Virus record (IMG/VR): IMGVR_UViG_3300032125_000014
Span: 1 to 36,809 of that record
Length of the DNA: 36,809 bases
Origin: a virus
Lineage: Duplodnaviria; Caudoviricetes
Reading direction: 5' to 3' (one strand)
In this document: piece by piece, positions 10,523 to 26,576 of the stretch
Layout: the number at the start of each line of letters is the position of its first letter
Numbering within the stretch: the stretch's first letter is position 1
The notes under the pieces: generated by a model
Database searches by the model: none
What the model was told of the DNA's origin: nothing
The model's input: only the letters and a program-made list of their open reading frames with translations
Position numbers and translations under genes: made by a program

Positions 10523-13500
10523 ATGTCAGATGGAAAAGTTCTAATAGAGGTGGATTTAAATGATGATGGTGTTAATAACGCTCTTAAAAGGGTAGAAAAC
10601 GATGCTATAAACAGTGGTAGTAAAATCGGAAGGTCAGTATCAAAACTTTCTGAACAGTCGCTGGACGTGGCAAAGAAAGCCGCTTTAGGTATCTTAGCTA
10701 TTGGCGGAGCATTCGCTGGTTTCAGTATTAAATCAGCTGGTGAGTTGCAAGCAACTAATGCACAATTTACAGAAGTATTTGGAAAAATGGAAAAAGATGC
10801 TTCTAAAAGCGTTGATAAAATAGCTAAAGAGACAGGGATACTACCTAGTCGTTTAAAAGGAACCTTTACGCAAATGGCTGCTTTCGCTAAAGTTGGTGGA
10901 TTAGAAACAGCAGAAGCGCTTGACCTTTCAGGAAGAGCGACCTTAGCGGCTGCAGATAGTGCAGCGTTCTATGACAAGTCAATAGAATCAACTACCGAAT
11001 CGTTGCAGTCGTTTTTGAAAGGGAACTATGCTAATGATGCTGCATTAGGTATTTCTTCAACAGAAACAACTAGAAATGCAGCGGCAAATAAACTGTATGG
11101 TAAATCATTTAATGATCTAGAAGAGTCTCAAAAGCAGTTAACATTATTAAAAACGGTTGAAGATGGGAATAAACTTTCTGGTGCGTTAGGTCAAGCAGCA
11201 AGAGAAACAGACGGCTTAGAGAACGTTATGGGTAACTTGAAACAAGGGGTTATAGACGTAGCGGCCGCTTTTGGTACGCCACTATTAGGACCGTTCATCG
11301 TAGCTGCTAAAGCTGCCGCTAAGGTCTTAGGTGATTTCGGAAAAGCTTTGACAGCAAACCCAGCGTTAGTTTATGCAATCGTCGGAGCGTTAACAACATT
11401 AGCAGTTGCCTTTGGAACAGTTTATTTAGCAGCTAACAAAATGAAAATACTAGCATCGGTAAAATCTGGTTTAGCCGTTTTAACCAATCCGTTATTCTTA
11501 GTAGTATTAGCGATAGGAGCTTTAATCACAGCTTTTGTATACTTTTATAAAACTAGCGAAGGATTTAGGAATGCTGTAAACAAAATAATCGCTCCATTGA
11601 AATCGTTGGTACCAGTTTTTAAGAATATAGGAAGTGTTATGAAAATTATCGGAAGTATTATGAAGGCATTTTTTACAGATATGCAGCAAGTAGGAAAATT
11701 AAACGGAATGTTGCATGAGATACTACCAAAAAGTGTGGCTGATTCTATATTTAACGGTGTAATGAAAATTACTCATACCATTTACTATTTGATTAATGCT
11801 TTTAAAGTAGTGGCTGGTGTTGCTAGCGGATCTATTTCTAACATGGAAGATTTAGGTAAATTATTACCTAAGATTTTTGACAAAGGCGGACGCTTTAGCG
11901 AAACGTTTTCTAAACAATTATTTGATGTAGGTAGCGCAATAAAATCTGTCATATCTTTCTTTAAGGATTTATTTAACCCAACTAAAAAAGCAGGAGAATC
12001 AATAGATTTCGTAAAAATAGGATTTATGATTTTAAAAACTGTCGCTTTGGGGCTATTAGGACCAATTGGTTTAGTGATACGAGTGATTGGCCTTGTTGCT
12101 AAAGCTTTAGGCGGTGGCGATGTAAAAGCGGGTATTCAAGCTATGTTAGATGGTTTCACGTCTTTAGCTGATGGTATAAGAGATAACGGTGGGAAAGTAG
12201 GCGCTAGTGTTGGCGACATGTTAGCGGGAATATTAATTGCTATCGGTGCAGCGTTACCTGGTATTATATCTGGTGCTTTATCGATTATTGCTGGATTCAT
12301 AACGGGACTGGCTCAAGGATTACCGCAAGTAGCTTTTGCAGCGTTTAGATTAATAAATGCTTTTACCGGAAGTATGTTGTTACTGATTCCTACAATTGCT
12401 GCATCCGCAACACTAATGATCGTGGCTTTGCTTGGGAGTTTAGCGGCGGGTTTGCCACAAATAATACTAGCAGGTGTCAATTTGCTTATATCATTTATCG
12501 CCGGTTTAACAATTGGAATACCAAGATTCGTATTAGCTGTAACAAATATAATTGTTGTATTTCTAAATAGTATTTCAAATAATTTACCTCGTATCATAGC
12601 AGCCGGTATTAATTTATTGGTTTCATTTTTACAAGGTATCACAGACAACTTACCTAAATTAAGCGCAACAGTAACGACGTTAATCACTACATTTTTAAAT
12701 ACCTTATCTGATAATCTACCTAGAATTATTGCAAGTGGATCTAATTTGCTTGTTAAATTCTTAAATGGAATTGCAGATAATTTACCGAAAGTAATTACCG
12801 CAGCAGTCAATGTGATTGTTTCATTCTTAAATGGAATAGCGAACAACTTACCTCGTATCATAACATCTGCAGTCAATTTGATTGTGGCTTTTTTACGTGG
12901 TATAGCTAGTCAGATTGGCAGAATTGTGAACGCAGCTATGGACTTAGTAGATGCAATGGTTAGAGGAATATTACAAGCTCAAGGCAGATTATCAAAAGCT
13001 GTTATTGATTTAATGAACGGAATGGCCAAGAACATAAATAACAGCGCTCCTCAAATGAAAAAGGCAGCAGGCAATTTACTAAGAGCCATTATCGAAGCTT
13101 TTCCTGGCGGCGGTTTAGTAACAGCTGGATTTGATTTAATGGCTGGATTGGCAAAAGGTATTGGCAATGCGGTTGGCGGAGTAATATCAAAAGCGAAAGA
13201 AGTTGCCGGTAACATTGTCGGTGCTGTTAAAGGAGCTTTCAAAATACATTCTCCTTCACGTGTTATGGAAGATGAAGTCGGTAGATATATACCGGAGGGT
13301 ATAGCAGTTGGTATGGAAGGTAATACAAGCAAAGCAATTAAATCAGCCAGATTAATGGCAAGTAAAGTTGTTAGTTCTATCCCCACTGCTGAAATGGCAA
13401 TGGGAATAAACGCTAAAATGAGTACCAGCATGAACCGTGCTTCATCAGGCAATGTAACAAATAATAATTATTCAAATGATGATAACAATAATGAAATAGT

Positions 13501-13645
13501 AAACTTATTAAGAGAAATTGCTGCTAAACCATTCGTCGCAAACATGGATGGAAAAAGAATTAGTAAAGCTATTGGAAGAGAAGTAGATAGAACACAAGGT
13601 GAAAGAATCAAGCGGTCAGATTGGGGGTTAGAGATTGATGGGTAA
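10523..13645 (+). CDS. Tape measure protein
   Basis: 1040 aa, Ala/Gly-rich; AAADSAAFYD..LQSFLKGN motif, 22-aa amphipathic repeats, IHSPSRVM motif. Confidence 0.95.
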   Translation: MSDGKVLIEVDLNDDGVNNALKRVENDAINSGSKIGRSVSKLSEQSLDVAKKAALGILAIGGAFAGFSIKSAGELQATNAQFTEVFGKMEKDASKSVDKIAKETGILPSRLKGTFTQMAAFAKVGGLETAEALDLSGRATLAAADSAAFYDKSIESTTESLQSFLKGNYANDAALGISSTETTRNAAANKLYGKSFNDLEESQKQLTLLKTVEDGNKLSGALGQAARETDGLENVMGNLKQGVIDVAAAFGTPLLGPFIVAAKAAAKVLGDFGKALTANPALVYAIVGALTTLAVAFGTVYLAANKMKILASVKSGLAVLTNPLFLVVLAIGALITAFVYFYKTSEGFRNAVNKIIAPLKSLVPVFKNIGSVMKIIGSIMKAFFTDMQQVGKLNGMLHEILPKSVADSIFNGVMKITHTIYYLINAFKVVAGVASGSISNMEDLGKLLPKIFDKGGRFSETFSKQLFDVGSAIKSVISFFKDLFNPTKKAGESIDFVKIGFMILKTVALGLLGPIGLVIRVIGLVAKALGGGDVKAGIQAMLDGFTSLADGIRDNGGKVGASVGDMLAGILIAIGAALPGIISGALSIIAGFITGLAQGLPQVAFAAFRLINAFTGSMLLLIPTIAASATLMIVALLGSLAAGLPQIILAGVNLLISFIAGLTIGIPRFVLAVTNIIVVFLNSISNNLPRIIAAGINLLVSFLQGITDNLPKLSATVTTLITTFLNTLSDNLPRIIASGSNLLVKFLNGIADNLPKVITAAVNVIVSFLNGIANNLPRIITSAVNLIVAFLRGIASQIGRIVNAAMDLVDAMVRGILQAQGRLSKAVIDLMNGMAKNINNSAPQMKKAAGNLLRAIIEAFPGGGLVTAGFDLMAGLAKGIGNAVGGVISKAKEVAGNIVGAVKGAFKIHSPSRVMEDEVGRYIPEGIAVGMEGNTSKAIKSARLMASKVVSSIPTAEMAMGINAKMSTSMNRASSGNVTNNNYSNDDNNNEIVNLLREIAAKPFVANMDGKRISKAIGREVDRTQGERIKRSDWGLEIDG
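12452..12913 (+). repeat. Seven 66-bp (22-aa) tandem repeats in TMP
   Basis: Units such as LPRIIAAGINLLVSFLQGITDN and LPKVITAAVNVIVSFLNGIANN. Confidence 0.9.
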
Positions 13646-18371: not shown

Positions 18372-19109
18372 TCAATTGATAGATTCTTTATTAATTAACT
18401 CATTTAATTCTTTAATATAAGCAGAAACGCCTGTATAAATGACTTCCAAAGTATTTAATACTTCTTTTTGAGAATCACCAAAAGTTAATTTATAATAAAA
18501 ATCAACATCATATTTTCTTACGTAAGGATGTGTTGCAGCAGTTTTTTCGTTAAACGGAATATTGCCGATAACTATGTTATCCTTTCCTGAGTCAAACGCT
18601 CCACAATCTATAAGTTTGTTACCTGATGTCGTTTCTAAATATTTAATTTGTATGCCTTTTTCTTTAATTGCTTGCTTAGATAAATTATTATGTTTATTTG
18701 AATTAACTAAATTATTGAACTCTTGCAACCATTTATTACTGTTATAATATTGCATTGATTCAATTAGTTTATAAACATCCGGATTACTAATGCTTAGATT
18801 CTTGAATTTCTTACTCATATTTTTTTCAAATTCTGTTTTACTCTTATTTAATGGAAACTGAGGCCTGTCAGCACAGTTTCTTCTTATGTCAGAATTTGAA
18901 TTGTATTGATCTCTGCAATAAGTATCGAAAACAAAGTTTGCAGAATAATCTAATGGTGACCGTAAATTTTCTAGAGTGTTTTTAACATATACTTTTATAA
19001 AAGGTATCATGTTGGTGTCTTCTAATGACTTTGGAACTAAAGTTTCTAGATTTTCTAATGTTTCTTTTGATACGCTTAAACACGCATTAGAATCTTTTAG
19101 CCAGTTCAT
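18372..19109 (-). CDS. Moron protein, possibly HEPN-like (ENLRSPLDY...FP...LVNSNKH)
   Basis: 245 aa, AT-rich, opposite to the late operon; GAGGTG RBS and TATAAT (19134-19139, minus strand). Confidence 0.75.
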   Translation of the reverse strand: MNWLKDSNACLSVSKETLENLETLVPKSLEDTNMIPFIKVYVKNTLENLRSPLDYSANFVFDTYCRDQYNSNSDIRRNCADRPQFPLNKSKTEFEKNMSKKFKNLSISNPDVYKLIESMQYYNSNKWLQEFNNLVNSNKHNNLSKQAIKEKGIQIKYLETTSGNKLIDCGAFDSGKDNIVIGNIPFNEKTAATHPYVRKYDVDFYYKLTFGDSQKEVLNTLEVIYTGVSAYIKELNELINKESIN

Positions 19110-21956: not shown

Positions 21957-23132
21957 TTAAAAAAGGTTCTTAAATGTATCGCCAGCACCTTGGTCAGCCT
22001 CTTTTAAAACATGAGCATAGATGTCCATTGTAGTACCTATTTTTTTGTGACCTAGTCGTTCTTGAATGACTTTCATGTTAACACCCTGATGAAGTAGCCA
22101 AGTAGCTGAAGAGTGTCTTAAATCGTGAAATGTAATGTATCTTAAATCATGACGTTTAATAAATCTGTTCCAACGTTGATAGAAAGAGGAGACACGTTTC
22201 GGTTTGCCCTCAACATTGCTGAATAAGAATTTATGTTTCGACCATTCATTGTCTATTCCGACGAAATCACGATCAGCTCTTTTATTAAACATGTGTCTTT
22301 TTATCATAACCATTAATCCATCTGGAACGGAAACTTCTTTAACTGTTTTTGTTTTAGTGTAATTTTGGAGAGTAGAACCAATTTTACTTTTATCAATAAT
22401 CATTTGTTCAAATGTAATGGTATTTTTGGAGAAATCAATGTGCTTATCTTCTAACGCTGCAATCTCGCCTTCACGGCCACCAGTAGTGACAGCTATTGAA
22501 ACAATAACCTGGTATTCTAACGGTTCTTTTTTTAATGCTTCAAACAACAATCCTATCTCATGAGTGTTGTAGGGTTCTGTCTTTTTAGAATAAACTCTTT
22601 CATCGGGACCAACATCTATTTTCTTAATAGGATTAGCGTCTATGAATTGCCATTCAGTGGCCAAATTGAAAACAGATGTAATAGAGAGTAAGGCATTCTT
22701 TTTTGTTTTGCGAGATAGACCACCTTCTTTGCCGTCTATTCGTTTTAAGTTATTAATGATGTTGACTATGTGCATTGTTTTAATATCTGCAACCATCATT
22801 CCACCAATGACAGGCAAGAATCTATTTTCTAACATATGCAAGTAAAGAGTAATAGTCTTATATTCCATTTTCTTTTCAGCATACTTTGGTAACCATTCAT
22901 TATAGATAAAATCATCTAGCTTTATTTTAGTTGGTTTGTAATAATTTGATCCTTCTAATTCAACAATGAAATCACGTAACGCTTTTTCAGCTTGTCGCTC
23001 ACTTTTAACACGAATGCTTTTAGTTCGACGAACGGGATTGCCTTTCTGATTATAGCCAACCGTTACATATAGTTTGTAGTGGTCGTCAGCAAGTTCTTTG
23101 ATGCTGCCATTCAATCTTCTTTTCTTATCCAC
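21957..23132 (-). CDS. int: Tyrosine integrase (ICEBs1/Tn916-like architecture)
   Basis: TGGREGEI, FHDLRHS, ERLGH and DIYAH catalytic motifs; N-terminal arm-binding domain; adjacent to attP. Confidence 0.96.
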   Translation of the reverse strand: MDKKRRLNGSIKELADDHYKLYVTVGYNQKGNPVRRTKSIRVKSERQAEKALRDFIVELEGSNYYKPTKIKLDDFIYNEWLPKYAEKKMEYKTITLYLHMLENRFLPVIGGMMVADIKTMHIVNIINNLKRIDGKEGGLSRKTKKNALLSITSVFNLATEWQFIDANPIKKIDVGPDERVYSKKTEPYNTHEIGLLFEALKKEPLEYQVIVSIAVTTGGREGEIAALEDKHIDFSKNTITFEQMIIDKSKIGSTLQNYTKTKTVKEVSVPDGLMVMIKRHMFNKRADRDFVGIDNEWSKHKFLFSNVEGKPKRVSSFYQRWNRFIKRHDLRYITFHDLRHSSATWLLHQGVNMKVIQERLGHKKIGTTMDIYAHVLKEADQGAGDTFKNLF

Positions 23133-23443
23133 GTTTCCACATCCTCATAGTTTAATTTAGCGTGAAACTGTTGTTGTTCTTCGTTAATCCACACATCATC
23201 TACATTGTTTAAAGCAACGTCTGGATAAATCATGCCAACACTCTGTAACTCATACCATAAGTCTTTAGTTATATCTTTATCATCATACCTAGATAAAGAG
23301 AGGTGGATGTAATCCTTAAAATAATAGATAAATAAACTGTATTTCATATCAATATCCATTGACCTCACACGCAATGCTTTTGTGTTTTTCGTAGCTTGAC
23401 GGCAGAAATCCTTTTCTAGTGAAGATAAGTCTTTGATTATCAT
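23111..23443 (-). CDS. Hypothetical protein overlapping the int start
   Basis: 110 aa, AGGGG RBS, 22-nt overlap with int. Confidence 0.7.
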   Translation of the reverse strand: MIIKDLSSLEKDFCRQATKNTKALRVRSMDIDMKYSLFIYYFKDYIHLSLSRYDDKDITKDLWYELQSVGMIYPDVALNNVDDVWINEEQQQFHAKLNYEDVETWIRKED

Positions 23444-23483
23444 AATATTTTCCCCCTGTTATCGTATATTTGATTAAAAGATA

Positions 23484-23497
23484 CGAACTTATGTTCT
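23484..23497. promoter_or_regulatory. LexA/DinR SOS box (Cheo box)
   Basis: cGAAC-ttat-GTTCt matches the Firmicute GAAC-N4-GTTC consensus, about 40 bp upstream of the 110-aa gene. Confidence 0.75.
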
Positions 23498-23507
23498 TTC
23501 CCACGTG

Positions 23508-23529
23508 AAAAGAAAAGGCTGTTAAGCCT
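23508..23529 (-). terminator. Terminator after lipoprotein gene
   Basis: Minus strand AGGCT-taac-AGCCT-TTTCTTTT. Confidence 0.6.
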
Positions 23530-23535
23530 AGTCTT

Positions 23536-24111
23536 TTATTTGACTTCTATCGTTTTCTCGCCTAAATCTTTACCATCTATACCTTGATTGGCTTTTAGTT
23601 CAACCGGTGTAATATCGTCATCAAGTTCATAAGCAATGGCATTAGCAACAGTCCCATTTTGCTTGATAACTTCAGATTGAGTATCCAAGAACTTTTCATC
23701 TGGAAGAGAAGCAACATTTAGTTCATTCACGCTATCAGGGTTATTATCTTGAAAAGCAGAAAATACTGCTATCCAAGCAATCAAAGGATCAAGTTCTTTC
23801 TCAGTTAAATTAGTAGTATCATACCAAAAAGCGATAACAGGTTTCTCACCATATTCGTTTCCTGTTTCACCGACCGGTATAATTTTCGTGTCAGTTATAT
23901 TTATTTCTAGATCATTAATAACTAACTCATCATCTTTAAAATAGAAGTCTTCATTTTTACTTTCAGATTCAACAGCCTTACTTTCTTCTTTTGCTACATC
24001 AACTTGAGATGCTGCTTGTTTTTCTGGTGTATTAGACTCTTCTTCATTGCCACAAGCTCCTAAAACTAAACCACAAACTCCAAGCGCTACAAGTAACTTA
24101 ATCTTCTTCAT
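23536..24111 (-). CDS. Lipoprotein (DUF5067-like), possible superinfection exclusion
   Basis: Signal peptide with LGAC lipobox; PVIAFWYDTTN, AFQDN and AIAYELDD..TPV motifs; in the cI transcript. Confidence 0.82.
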   Translation of the reverse strand: MKKIKLLVALGVCGLVLGACGNEEESNTPEKQAASQVDVAKEESKAVESESKNEDFYFKDDELVINDLEINITDTKIIPVGETGNEYGEKPVIAFWYDTTNLTEKELDPLIAWIAVFSAFQDNNPDSVNELNVASLPDEKFLDTQSEVIKQNGTVANAIAYELDDDITPVELKANQGIDGKDLGEKTIEVK

Positions 24112-24797: not shown

Positions 24798-24904
24798 GAT
24801 ACAAAAAGTATCACTAGTAAAGAAATATACAAAATGTATCAACTAATGCTTGACGATACATAATGTATCGTGTATATTAAATACATAGAGATACAAAACG
24901 TATC
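24798..24904. promoter_or_regulatory. Four operators GATAC-N5-GTATC in the cI/cro intergenic region
   Basis: 24798-24812, 24826-24840 (TATAC variant), 24855-24869, 24890-24904. Confidence 0.9.
24850..24878 (+). promoter_or_regulatory. Early lytic promoter (P cro)
   Basis: TTGACG-17 bp-TATATT with an operator in the spacer. Confidence 0.85.
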
Positions 24905-24922: not shown

Positions 24923-25168
24923 ATGATGTGTGAAAGAAGGAAAGGGTTAATCCAAGAGAGAGAATCAAAGAACTTAACCCGTGAGGAACTAGCGGAGAAA
25001 TTAGGAGTAGCAGAGATAACTGTTAGGAAAATAGAAGAAGGTGGCAGAAATCCCAGCATCAATATGGCTAAGAGATTTGCTATCTATTATAAAAAAGATC
25101 TAACAGAATTGTTTCCTGATATTTTTTTACTCTCGTTCGATACGAAACGTATCGGAGTTAAGCGCTAA
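24923..25168 (+). CDS. cro: Cro-like XRE regulator
   Basis: LTREELAEKLGVAEITVRKIEEGGRNPS HTH; divergent from cI. Confidence 0.88.
   Translation: MMCERRKGLIQERESKNLTREELAEKLGVAEITVRKIEEGGRNPSINMAKRFAIYYKKDLTELFPDIFLLSFDTKRIGVKR
25139..25153. promoter_or_regulatory. Fifth operator within the 3' end of cro
   Basis: GATAC-gaaac-GTATC. Confidence 0.8.
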
Positions 25169-25283
25169 TGACTTATATTCAGTATAACCCAATAACAATC
25201 GTAGTTAAATAATCTCATCTATGTAATTAAGTGGTGAAACAAGTGAGCAAATCTTAAATAAAAATAGAAAGAAGGAAAATGAT

Positions 25284-25481
25284 ATGTCAGACGGAAAAGT
25301 AATAGTAGATGTATTGGTTACTGATGAAGCATTAGGAAAAGCGGTCAAATTGGTTGAGCTATTAAAAGAAGCCAAAACGCTGGCGGGCGAATTGGCTTCA
25401 ATAGAATTCTCAGAAGAAAAAACACTAACTAGCGAAGGATATCTAACTGCAAAAGGACCGAATGTAAGACGAACTATTTAA
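25284..25481 (+). CDS. 65-aa early protein with TMP-like N-terminus
   Basis: AAGAAGG RBS; MSDGKVIVDVLVTDEALGKAVKLVE resembles the TMP start. Confidence 0.75.
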   Translation: MSDGKVIVDVLVTDEALGKAVKLVELLKEAKTLAGELASIEFSEEKTLTSEGYLTAKGPNVRRTI

Positions 25482-25746
25482 AAATATGTTCTTTAATAAA
25501 AGTCCATTGTTCGTCAGAAGCGATACCTTGATAACTATCTTTGAGTTCACATATAAACAACCTATCGTTGTTGTCTATGATGTGATCAAATTCTTTAGCT
25601 ATCTGATTTGGAGTAGAAGATGTATTCACTAACCAGAAAGACTTTTGAAGTTTTATATAAGTGTACTTTTTAATAACTTCAAATATTTGGTCATATTTCT
25701 GACCAGGGCTGTTTAAATCATAACTAATTAAATATGGTTTAAACAT
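25474..25746 (-). CDS. Stand-alone Cas2/VapD-like ferredoxin-fold protein
   Basis: YLISYDL..PGQKY, KLQKSFWLV and DNNDRLFI motifs; AAGGAGGTG RBS before ATG 25746; TGnGATAAT extended -10 upstream. Confidence 0.75.
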   Translation of the reverse strand: MFKPYLISYDLNSPGQKYDQIFEVIKKYTYIKLQKSFWLVNTSSTPNQIAKEFDHIIDNNDRLFICELKDSYQGIASDEQWTFIKEHIFK

Positions 25747-25811
25747 TTTTTTCACCTCCTTTATAGGAGATTATCTCATTCAAATTAAAAAATAGGAAGA
25801 AGGAAATTAAC

Positions 25812-26576
25812 ATGTCAAATTTAGTAATTATGAAAGATAGACAAGCCGTAACAAGTTCGTTAGATGTAGCAGAAACTTTTTCAAAAAGGCACGATCACGT
25901 ATTAAGAGATTTAGACGAACTTAAAGAGGGGGTTACCCAAAATTGGGGAGACCTATTTTGGGAAGATACTTACATTCATCCACAAAATAAACAGCCCTAC
26001 AGAATTATTTACATGAATCGAGACGGATTTACATTACTGGCAATGGGCTTCAATGGTAAAAAGGCAATGAGTTTTAAACTAAAATATATTCAAGCTTTTA
26101 ATCACATGGAAAAAGAATTAATTGAATTAGCGAAAGATTCTTACATGATTGATGATCCTGTCAAAAGAGCTGAAAAGTGGATTCAAGAAAGAAAGCAAGT
26201 TCAGGCATTAGAACTAGAAAATCAGACGCTTGCACCAAAAGCATTGTTTGCAGATAGCGTATCAGCTTCTGACACATCTATTCTAGTCAGCGACTTAGCA
26301 AAGTTGTTAAAGCAGAACGGTATTGAAATTGGTGGAACTAGATTGTTTGGTTGGTTAAGAGATAACGGGTTCTTGATTAGACGTAAAGGTACGGATTACA
26401 ACATGCCAACGCAGCGCTCGATGGAACTAAAATTGTTCCAGATTAAAGAGACAACCATCAACCATAATAGCGGACGTATCTCAATTTCTAGAACACCTAA
26501 AGTTACCGGCAAGGGTCAATTGTATTTCATTAATAAATTTATTACAGAAAAAAATAAAATCGGAATAGAGGGGTAA
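25812..26576 (+). CDS. Antirepressor (Rha N-terminal plus KilAC/ANT C-terminal)
   Basis: TSSLDVAETFSKRHDHVLRD, MNRDGFTLLAMGF, PKALFADSV and TPKVTGKGQLYF motifs. Confidence 0.93.
   Translation: MSNLVIMKDRQAVTSSLDVAETFSKRHDHVLRDLDELKEGVTQNWGDLFWEDTYIHPQNKQPYRIIYMNRDGFTLLAMGFNGKKAMSFKLKYIQAFNHMEKELIELAKDSYMIDDPVKRAEKWIQERKQVQALELENQTLAPKALFADSVSASDTSILVSDLAKLLKQNGIEIGGTRLFGWLRDNGFLIRRKGTDYNMPTQRSMELKLFQIKETTINHNSGRISISRTPKVTGKGQLYFINKFITEKNKIGIEG

Follow-up and report, generated by a model that had tools for sequence, protein, structure and literature searches.

Why should a short early gene of a temperate phage begin like the same phage's tape measure protein (TMP) and also run head-on into a gene for a Cas2-like protein? 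The first-pass annotation of this locus joined the two features, proposing that the Cas2-like protein binds TMP N-termini and that the start of the 65-amino-acid (65-aa) ORF acts as a decoy. We examined this proposal in the window (the whole stretch of DNA analysed, 36,809 nucleotides) and in related phages and loci. The resemblance to the TMP is real, but the conserved element of the partner ORFs turned out to be the C-terminal tail.

A convergent gene pair in the early region

The window covers the complete genome of a temperate siphophage, which has a terminal repeat of 127 nt; two TMP relatives carry Carnobacterium names. The Cas2-like gene and the 65-aa ORF are placed between a cro-like gene and a Rha/ANT antirepressor gene, ant, and they are convergent with an overlap of 8 nt (25474-25481), as annotated at first pass. 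The locations of all features are listed in Table 1. Judging from the five operator-like repeats of 15 nt each, the rightward promoter and the layout of the genes, the 65-aa ORF is likely controlled by CI. Its sequence pattern suggests a strand-helix-strand layout.

A 30-nt direct repeat (26/30 identical) occurs once at the start of the 65-aa ORF and once at that of ant (25260-25289 and 25788-25817), and through it the whole slot could be deleted or exchanged. Elsewhere in the window, a 245-aa antisense ORF between the tail and lysis genes (18372-19109, minus strand; phrog_13652, function unassigned) is a moron candidate. The cI operon carries as cargo (23111-24111, minus strand) a 110-aa ORF without a family and a gene for a DUF5067 lipoprotein, for which superinfection exclusion is a possible role.

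Table 1. Features of the early region and of the TMP gene (positions in the window)
Feature	Position	Strand	Basis or remark
Operator-like palindromes (GATAC-N5-GTATC), four copies, with rightward promoter at 24850-24878	24798..24904	.	Fifth copy at 25139
cro-like HTH gene	24923..25168	+	Upstream of the 65-aa ORF
65-aa early ORF, very probably chimeric (carrier + tail)	25284..25481	+	Sequence; alignments of relatives
Carrier, residues 1-42	25284..25409	+	Phage family of ~50 aa, phrog_19236, E 4.8e-10
Tail, residues about 44-65	25410..25481	+	Homologous to the L177 partner tail; candidate antidote peptide
Swapped segment	25407..25748	.	In G001, a short end and a zinc-ribbon gene instead
Cas2/VapD-fold gene, 90 aa, phrog_1090	25474..25746	-	ATG at 25746
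Strong RBS of the Cas2-like gene, AAAGGAGGTG	25753..25762	-	Sequence; shared with G001 and L177
Candidate extended -10 element, TGnGATAAT	25770..25778	-	Sequence; same in L177; family-level -10 enrichment
Alternative promoter candidate, TTGACA-18-TATTTT	25789..25818	-	Promoter scan; overlaps the ant start
Rha/ANT antirepressor gene (ant)	25812..26576	+	Downstream; antisense promoter block in its 5' end
TMP gene, first 25 codons	10523..10597	+	Whole TMP gene, 10523-13645

The 65-aa ORF as a chimera in a swappable slot

Two relatives divide the ORF into a carrier and a tail. In blastn, the closest phage, G001, matches the window at 86.8% DNA identity over 25256-25406; the match stops at 25406 and resumes at 25749. 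The segment in the gap holds an antisense zinc-ribbon gene in G001 and no Cas2-like gene. The second relative, L177, aligns with the window at the DNA level from 25414 through the tail, the Cas2-like gene and the start of ant, and its partner ORF has an N-terminus unrelated to that of the 65-aa ORF. Because the homologies to G001 and L177 break off in this way and the antisense RBS/promoter block is common to all three, we regard 25407-25748 as a swappable slot. From these alignments, we consider it almost certain that the 65-aa ORF is a chimera of carrier and tail, and residues 44-65 are best read as having come in with the Cas2-like gene.

The carrier family is widespread and comprises 269 clusters at 50% identity. 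Searches did not find the carrier in 51 genomes of one related family or in 5 single genomes, and word-index homologue searches returned almost nothing for either the 65-aa ORF or the Cas2-like protein. At 5 of 23 loci, in distant phages (L021:4563-4863, L036, L038, L053 and L283:1311-1644), the family is opposed by a small CxxC zinc-ribbon gene (phrog_9188), and the two together are a candidate for a second convergent defence/antidote pair. Outside the window, the family has either such a gene or nothing opposite it.

The TMP-like start of the ORF

The start of the 65-aa ORF was said to match that of the TMP without gaps at 12 of 25 residues, and this likeness is indeed more than simple chance. 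Its local score was 64, against a maximum of 50 over 20,000 shuffles, and the pair came top of 2,415 N-terminal pairs from 70 window ORFs. When 1,075 phage ORF starts were compared, only another TMP outscored it. The score was also the highest among 150 members of the carrier family, which had a mean of 27.5 against the window TMP start and a next-best score of 57 (n = 149), while unrelated ORFs had 18.6. Six of the 12 identities (V6, V10, D14, A20, V24 and E25) are common in the ORF's own family, with frequencies of 0.30 to 0.72 among 100 members, and one further identity is the initiator Met. The lineage-specific part of the match is mainly SDGK.

The DNA identity given at first pass, 26/31, holds if counted from 2 nt upstream of the ATG; counted from the ATG it is 24/31, and over 25 codons it is 47/75. 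Different codons are used at six of the 12 identical residues. When the window was searched against itself by blastn, the match (E 0.094) ranked level with two further 26/31 repeats and below the repeat shared by the ORF and ant starts (26/30, E 0.008). Given these codon differences and a self-blastn match no better than other repeats in the window, we rejected recent copying of DNA from the TMP gene.

In both the window and G001, the ORF and the TMP have DGK, a start that is found in 4 of 149 family representatives. The G001 ORF keeps the start MSDGK, its own TMP starts MEDGK, and the ORF scores 55 against the window TMP and 49 against that of G001 itself. A profile of the carrier family gave TMP starts at most 3.2 bits. 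We found no carrier-family member in G828 (92% complete), a genome with the same TMP start in which cro is directly followed by a long same-strand ORF. Neighbours of the 65-aa ORF with TMP names in the similarity atlas stood at 0.76-0.77, below the lead threshold. We infer that the TMP-like start arrived with the carrier; it is confined to this lineage of phages and, for the Cas2-like gene, is probably incidental. This account does not cover the retention of DGK in both the ORF and the TMP of the window and G001. On this reading, a convincing TMP look-alike can be a passenger.

Partners elsewhere do not resemble their TMPs

The decoy proposal did not survive comparison with other genomes. Among 18 records fetched, 16 had a Cas2-like partner together with a TMP candidate, taken as the longest Ala/Gly-rich ORF and not from a family scan. 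None of these 16 partners was similar to its cognate TMP start (scores 15-26, against 64 in the window), two of the TMPs concerned starting MADG. The mean score was 19.8 with the cognate TMP and 20.3 with noncognate ones (permutation p 0.69). The carrier family does not track its own TMP either: in 8 other phages, the cognate mean was 19.1, against 20.2 for noncognate TMPs (p 0.81). That comparison covered 10 records, including the window and G001, with near-duplicates, TMP-less records and a frameshifted ORF (G020) dropped. Two records have identical carrier-family ORFs and unrelated TMPs. As a pair, the carrier family and the Cas2-like gene co-occur only in the window: none of 22 carrier-family records contains the Cas2-like gene, and the 1 of 30 Cas2-like records that contains the carrier family has it 1.2 kb away, facing a zinc-ribbon gene.

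In the available accounts, Tab sensitivity maps to the C-terminus and not the N-terminus of the TMP (PMC10884400), the TMP segment that Avs18 senses is a central one (PMC13581612), and Rta restricts the assembly of tails (PMC12987554). As described there, neither Avs18 nor Rta points to an N-terminal TMP decoy. What stands of the proposed architecture is an antisense gene likely expressed in the lysogen and a partner in the early lytic operon, for which there are tested precedents (TERi, Tha/Ith and Tab); the TMP decoy itself is not supported.

Conserved tails on unrelated carriers

We collected 46 convergent partner ORFs of 38-130 aa from Cas2-like loci with a GC content of up to 47%. Their starts were chosen by a simple RBS rule, and 12 loci (terminase-facing, chromosomal or non-Firmicutes-type) were omitted by name. 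Reduction at <80% Cas2 identity left 40 partners. Over the last 25 residues, a score of at least 30 was reached by 55 of 742 partner pairs with unrelated N-termini. None of the 150 control sets drawn from 345 small phage ORFs, and none of 150 shuffles, gave more than 10 such pairs. A tail match at this level was found for 33 of the 40 partners, against at most 15 in controls. By reading frame, the coding frame gave 55 tail matches, the other two sense frames gave 10 and 9, and the antisense frames gave 26, 20 and 14. Below 45% Cas2 identity, 24 of 555 pairs still scored at least 30. Part of the tail signal is at the DNA level, because the in-register antisense frame also scores high (26/742, and 18/555 at low identity).

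The recurrent tail motifs, whose patterns were defined after inspection of the data, are F-x-P-E-D-S-x-G / D-S-D-G-N-x-Y and, at the end of the tail, N-P-Y. For the Ser of the motif, AGY and TCN codons both occur. From these comparisons, the tails are probably under selection at the protein level. We also considered a conserved terminator behind the tail conservation and rejected it, there being no common hairpin on the Cas2 strand in the 18 loci folded.

The tail of the window is degenerate and has a single match of at least 30, to that of L177, whose Cas2-like protein is 59% identical. The score of this match is 32, whereas all 345 control tails scored 28 or less (shuffle p 0.0015); shared ancestry alone could explain the likeness. 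Seven of the 40 partners have no tail match, and at least two further tail classes exist. A partner class with an 'I-x-V-E-I-K-K' type motif was noted at L082, L083, L088, L095, L248, L250, L251, L256 and L264, and the partners at L094, L191 and L229 have a common end of the 'M-T-x-x-E-Y-E-K-L' type.

The Cas2-like protein and its candidate promoter

The label Cas2/VapD-like held up, with PADLOC Cas2 models matching at E 1.2e-6 and Cas2 proteins as the best structural matches. The predicted structure (pLDDT 89) has a ferredoxin-like fold with an Asp after strand 1, as in CRISPR Cas2, and the top Foldseek match was Cas2 of B. halodurans (E 4e-4). Structural TM scores were 0.66-0.73 for Cas2 or BPSL1038 and 0.55 for VapD. 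The TIGR01573 score of the protein, 21.6 bits, is below the cut-off of 24.5. Pfam CRISPR_Cas2 did not match it at E 0.1, and a sequence search returned no solved structure. No Cas1 match was seen among the window ORFs scanned, and no array-like repeats were seen in the window. Asp10 is invariant and Ser36 nearly invariant across the Cas2-like family, and by the pattern of VapD and BPSL1038 these two are putative catalytic residues.

The gene had also been credited with its own SigA-type promoter. This is plausible, since TATAAT occurs within 90 nt upstream of the Cas2-like gene in 25 of 40 relatives, compared with 4.6% of random windows, but the number of sites in the promoter scan was not above chance (6 found versus 5.0 ± 2.3 expected from shuffles). 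The -35 of the scan candidate TTGACA-18-TATTTT is the antisense of the ant start codon. At L088, L181, L231, L255, L256, L001 and L018, we noticed that the leader separating the -10 box from the RBS is conserved and resembles a small inverted repeat.

Distribution and defence context of the Cas2-like family

Phage records with the Cas2-like family number 86 and plasmid records 72, and the family occurs across phyla. In a Klebsiella P2-like phage, the Cas2-like gene faces the portal gene and adjoins PADLOC Hp1/Hp2, which we take to be part of a system from the P2 hotspot study. Its place there corresponds to that of the P2 hotspot, the gpA-gpQ region having been described as a defence hotspot (PMC9122126; available part). 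Of the 105 neighbours listed, 64 were scanned; they belong to 33 of the 44 genome loci. Defence-type neighbours appeared at 8 of these 33 loci, two of them nearly identical, a count made without a background control. These neighbours were CBASS (twice), AbiEii, type I and III RM, GmrSD, Cas3/Cse1 and RmrT. On balance, we lean towards the Cas2-like gene being an anti-phage defence.

Many Cas2-like copies have no small partner (those of L020/L091 face the terminase gene and that of L087 the portal gene, and most non-Firmicutes copies face none), so an antidote protein is not obligatory. In L020/L091 and L115, the Cas2-like gene is found among the packaging genes, in antisense orientation and next to terminase, in a Tab-like slot. 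At L132:3932-4282, a copy is flanked by cas3 and cse1 within a type I-E CRISPR locus. In Bacillus phage phi4B1 (L084:2001-2261) and several Staphylococcus phage records, the Cas2-like gene is unannotated and the opposite strand has been called.

A model for the cassette

The explanation that best fits the locus, to which we give slightly less than an even chance, is that 25407-25748 is a mobile cassette, consisting of an antisense gene for a Cas2/VapD-fold protein, likely an anti-phage nuclease, and an in-frame tail as its likely antidote. The tail, about 20 sense-strand codons, is joined in frame to the early gene upstream of it. In the lysogen, the antisense Cas2-like gene would be transcribed while CI holds the early operon off, and upon superinfection the protein, with its putative Asp10/Ser36 pair, would damage nucleic acid or block a phage step. 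Upon induction, the early operon would transcribe head-on through the Cas2-like gene, lowering its mRNA, and the tail peptide made by that operon would bind and block the Cas2-like protein. That the tail is a binding antidote we propose only tentatively. More doubtful is the wider claim that this is a widespread Cas2-fold family of prophage defences whose antidote is a portable C-terminal peptide, lacking a start codon and fusing to whichever early gene lies upstream.

If true, a single recombination step would wire self-protection to the lytic switch of a new phage, and such cassettes would have a simple route to staying mobile. A Cas2-fold effector family with members in Firmicutes prophages, P2-like phages and defence islands would be added, and the chimeric nature of many small early phage ORFs would be explained. 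The tails are short peptides open to direct testing. Opposite-strand defence/antidote pairs are already known from a few phages. A literature search conducted mostly without subscription papers or key supplements returned no description of the Cas2-like family, of the tails or of an N-terminal TMP decoy; the family could be listed in the TERi preprint, the P2-hotspot study or the VapD census supplements.

Alternative explanations

Might the defence gene be governed by antisense transcription alone, with the tails as carried-along remnants or in some other role, such as stability or a different partner? Copies without any small partner and the several unrelated tail classes would fit, and polymerase collision is described as switching expression in non-contiguous operons (PMC11087260; PMC11034616; both in part). 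We nevertheless judge this unlikely, since conservation of the tail protein across genera, with its Ser codon switches, needs a selective reason, and in the Tha/Ith system the major inhibitor, as far as the available text goes, is the protein (PMC11087260). It is quite improbable that the prophage makes the Cas2-like protein in the lysogen as an anti-CRISPR, or to modulate adaptation, so as to escape self-targeting by competing with the host Cas2. Cas2 proteins are its top structural matches, one copy lies between cas3 and cse1, and viral cas homologues act as anti-CRISPRs (bioRxiv 2023.06.24.545427), but no Cas2 homologue is named in the available part of that preprint, other copies adjoin defence genes that are not CRISPR genes or lie in the P2 hotspot, and a partner made in the lytic phase would be needless.

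The remaining alternatives concern the TMP-like start. It could be a real mimic, or an old 5' swap, that serves the zinc-ribbon gene, a host TMP sensor or competitor tails, as its top rank among the family members, the MSDGK kept in G001 beside a TMP starting MEDGK and the zinc-ribbon gene facing the carrier family at 5 of 23 loci would allow. Set against this are the absence of TMP tracking in 8 other phages, the identical ORFs with unrelated TMPs, the better fit of the G001 ORF to the window TMP than to its own, the low profile scores on TMP starts, G828 with the same TMP start and no family member found, and the occurrence of a DGK start in 4 of 149 representatives anyway, and we find such a mimic improbable. 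The original decoy model, in which the Cas2-like protein itself binds TMP N-termini, is barely credible: the resemblance is real and the layout fits Tab/anti-Tab, but all 16 other partner/TMP pairs lack similarity, carrier and Cas2-like gene are paired only in the window, and the conserved element of the partners is the C-terminal tail.

Comparison with known systems

The proposed cassette most invites comparison with TERi of Listeria phage phi10403S (bioRxiv 10.1101/2025.02.27.640495), in which, by its available description, an antisense gene likewise lies inside the early lytic module and has a promoter of its own. Both have a conserved promoter, alternating cargo genes (defence genes in TERi) and partners in the early operon, and the window and its relatives show the same three traits, with the antisense gene lying in the early lytic operon, the promoter block shared and the cargo alternating. 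According to the same description, however, TerI is a protein of 65 aa that blocks packaging, and its antidotes (anti-TerI1/2) are whole flanking or overlapping genes. In the window, a protein of Cas2 fold is the cargo, and what is conserved among the partners is a tail borne by changing carriers.

Tha/Ith of Staphylococcus phage 80alpha, as far as described (PMC11087260), is likewise encoded on opposite strands and switched with the life cycle by a protein and by head-on transcription. It differs in that Tha is encoded in the cI operon and is a HEPN RNase that minor tail proteins activate, and in its reversed orientation, the inhibitor being the antisense gene (PMC11087260). We found no HEPN match in the Cas2-like protein, which has the Cas2 fold instead. 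Tab/anti-Tab of Pseudomonas phage JBD26 also places a minus-strand gene with its own promoter opposite a lytic-phase antidote, but it sits between terminase genes, unlike the window pair between cro and ant, and in the available text anti-Tab is not presented as a TMP mimic (PMC10884400).

VapD toxins (PMC11980593) and BPSL1038 (PMC10491678), in the parts available, share with the Cas2-like protein a ferredoxin-like fold and a conserved Asp and Ser at the putative active site. VapD toxins have VapX, VapY and VapW antitoxins, from which the window partner differs in being convergent and neither an SH3 barrel nor an inactive paralogue (PMC11980593, as available). The neighbours, the 65-aa chimera and ant, gave no family match to VapX, VapY or VapW in libraries that may lack VapY and VapW models. 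By fold or position, as judged from these accounts, the Cas2-like cassette stands outside TERi, Tha/Ith and Tab/anti-Tab, combining a TERi-like layout with a Tha/Ith- and Tab-like logic.
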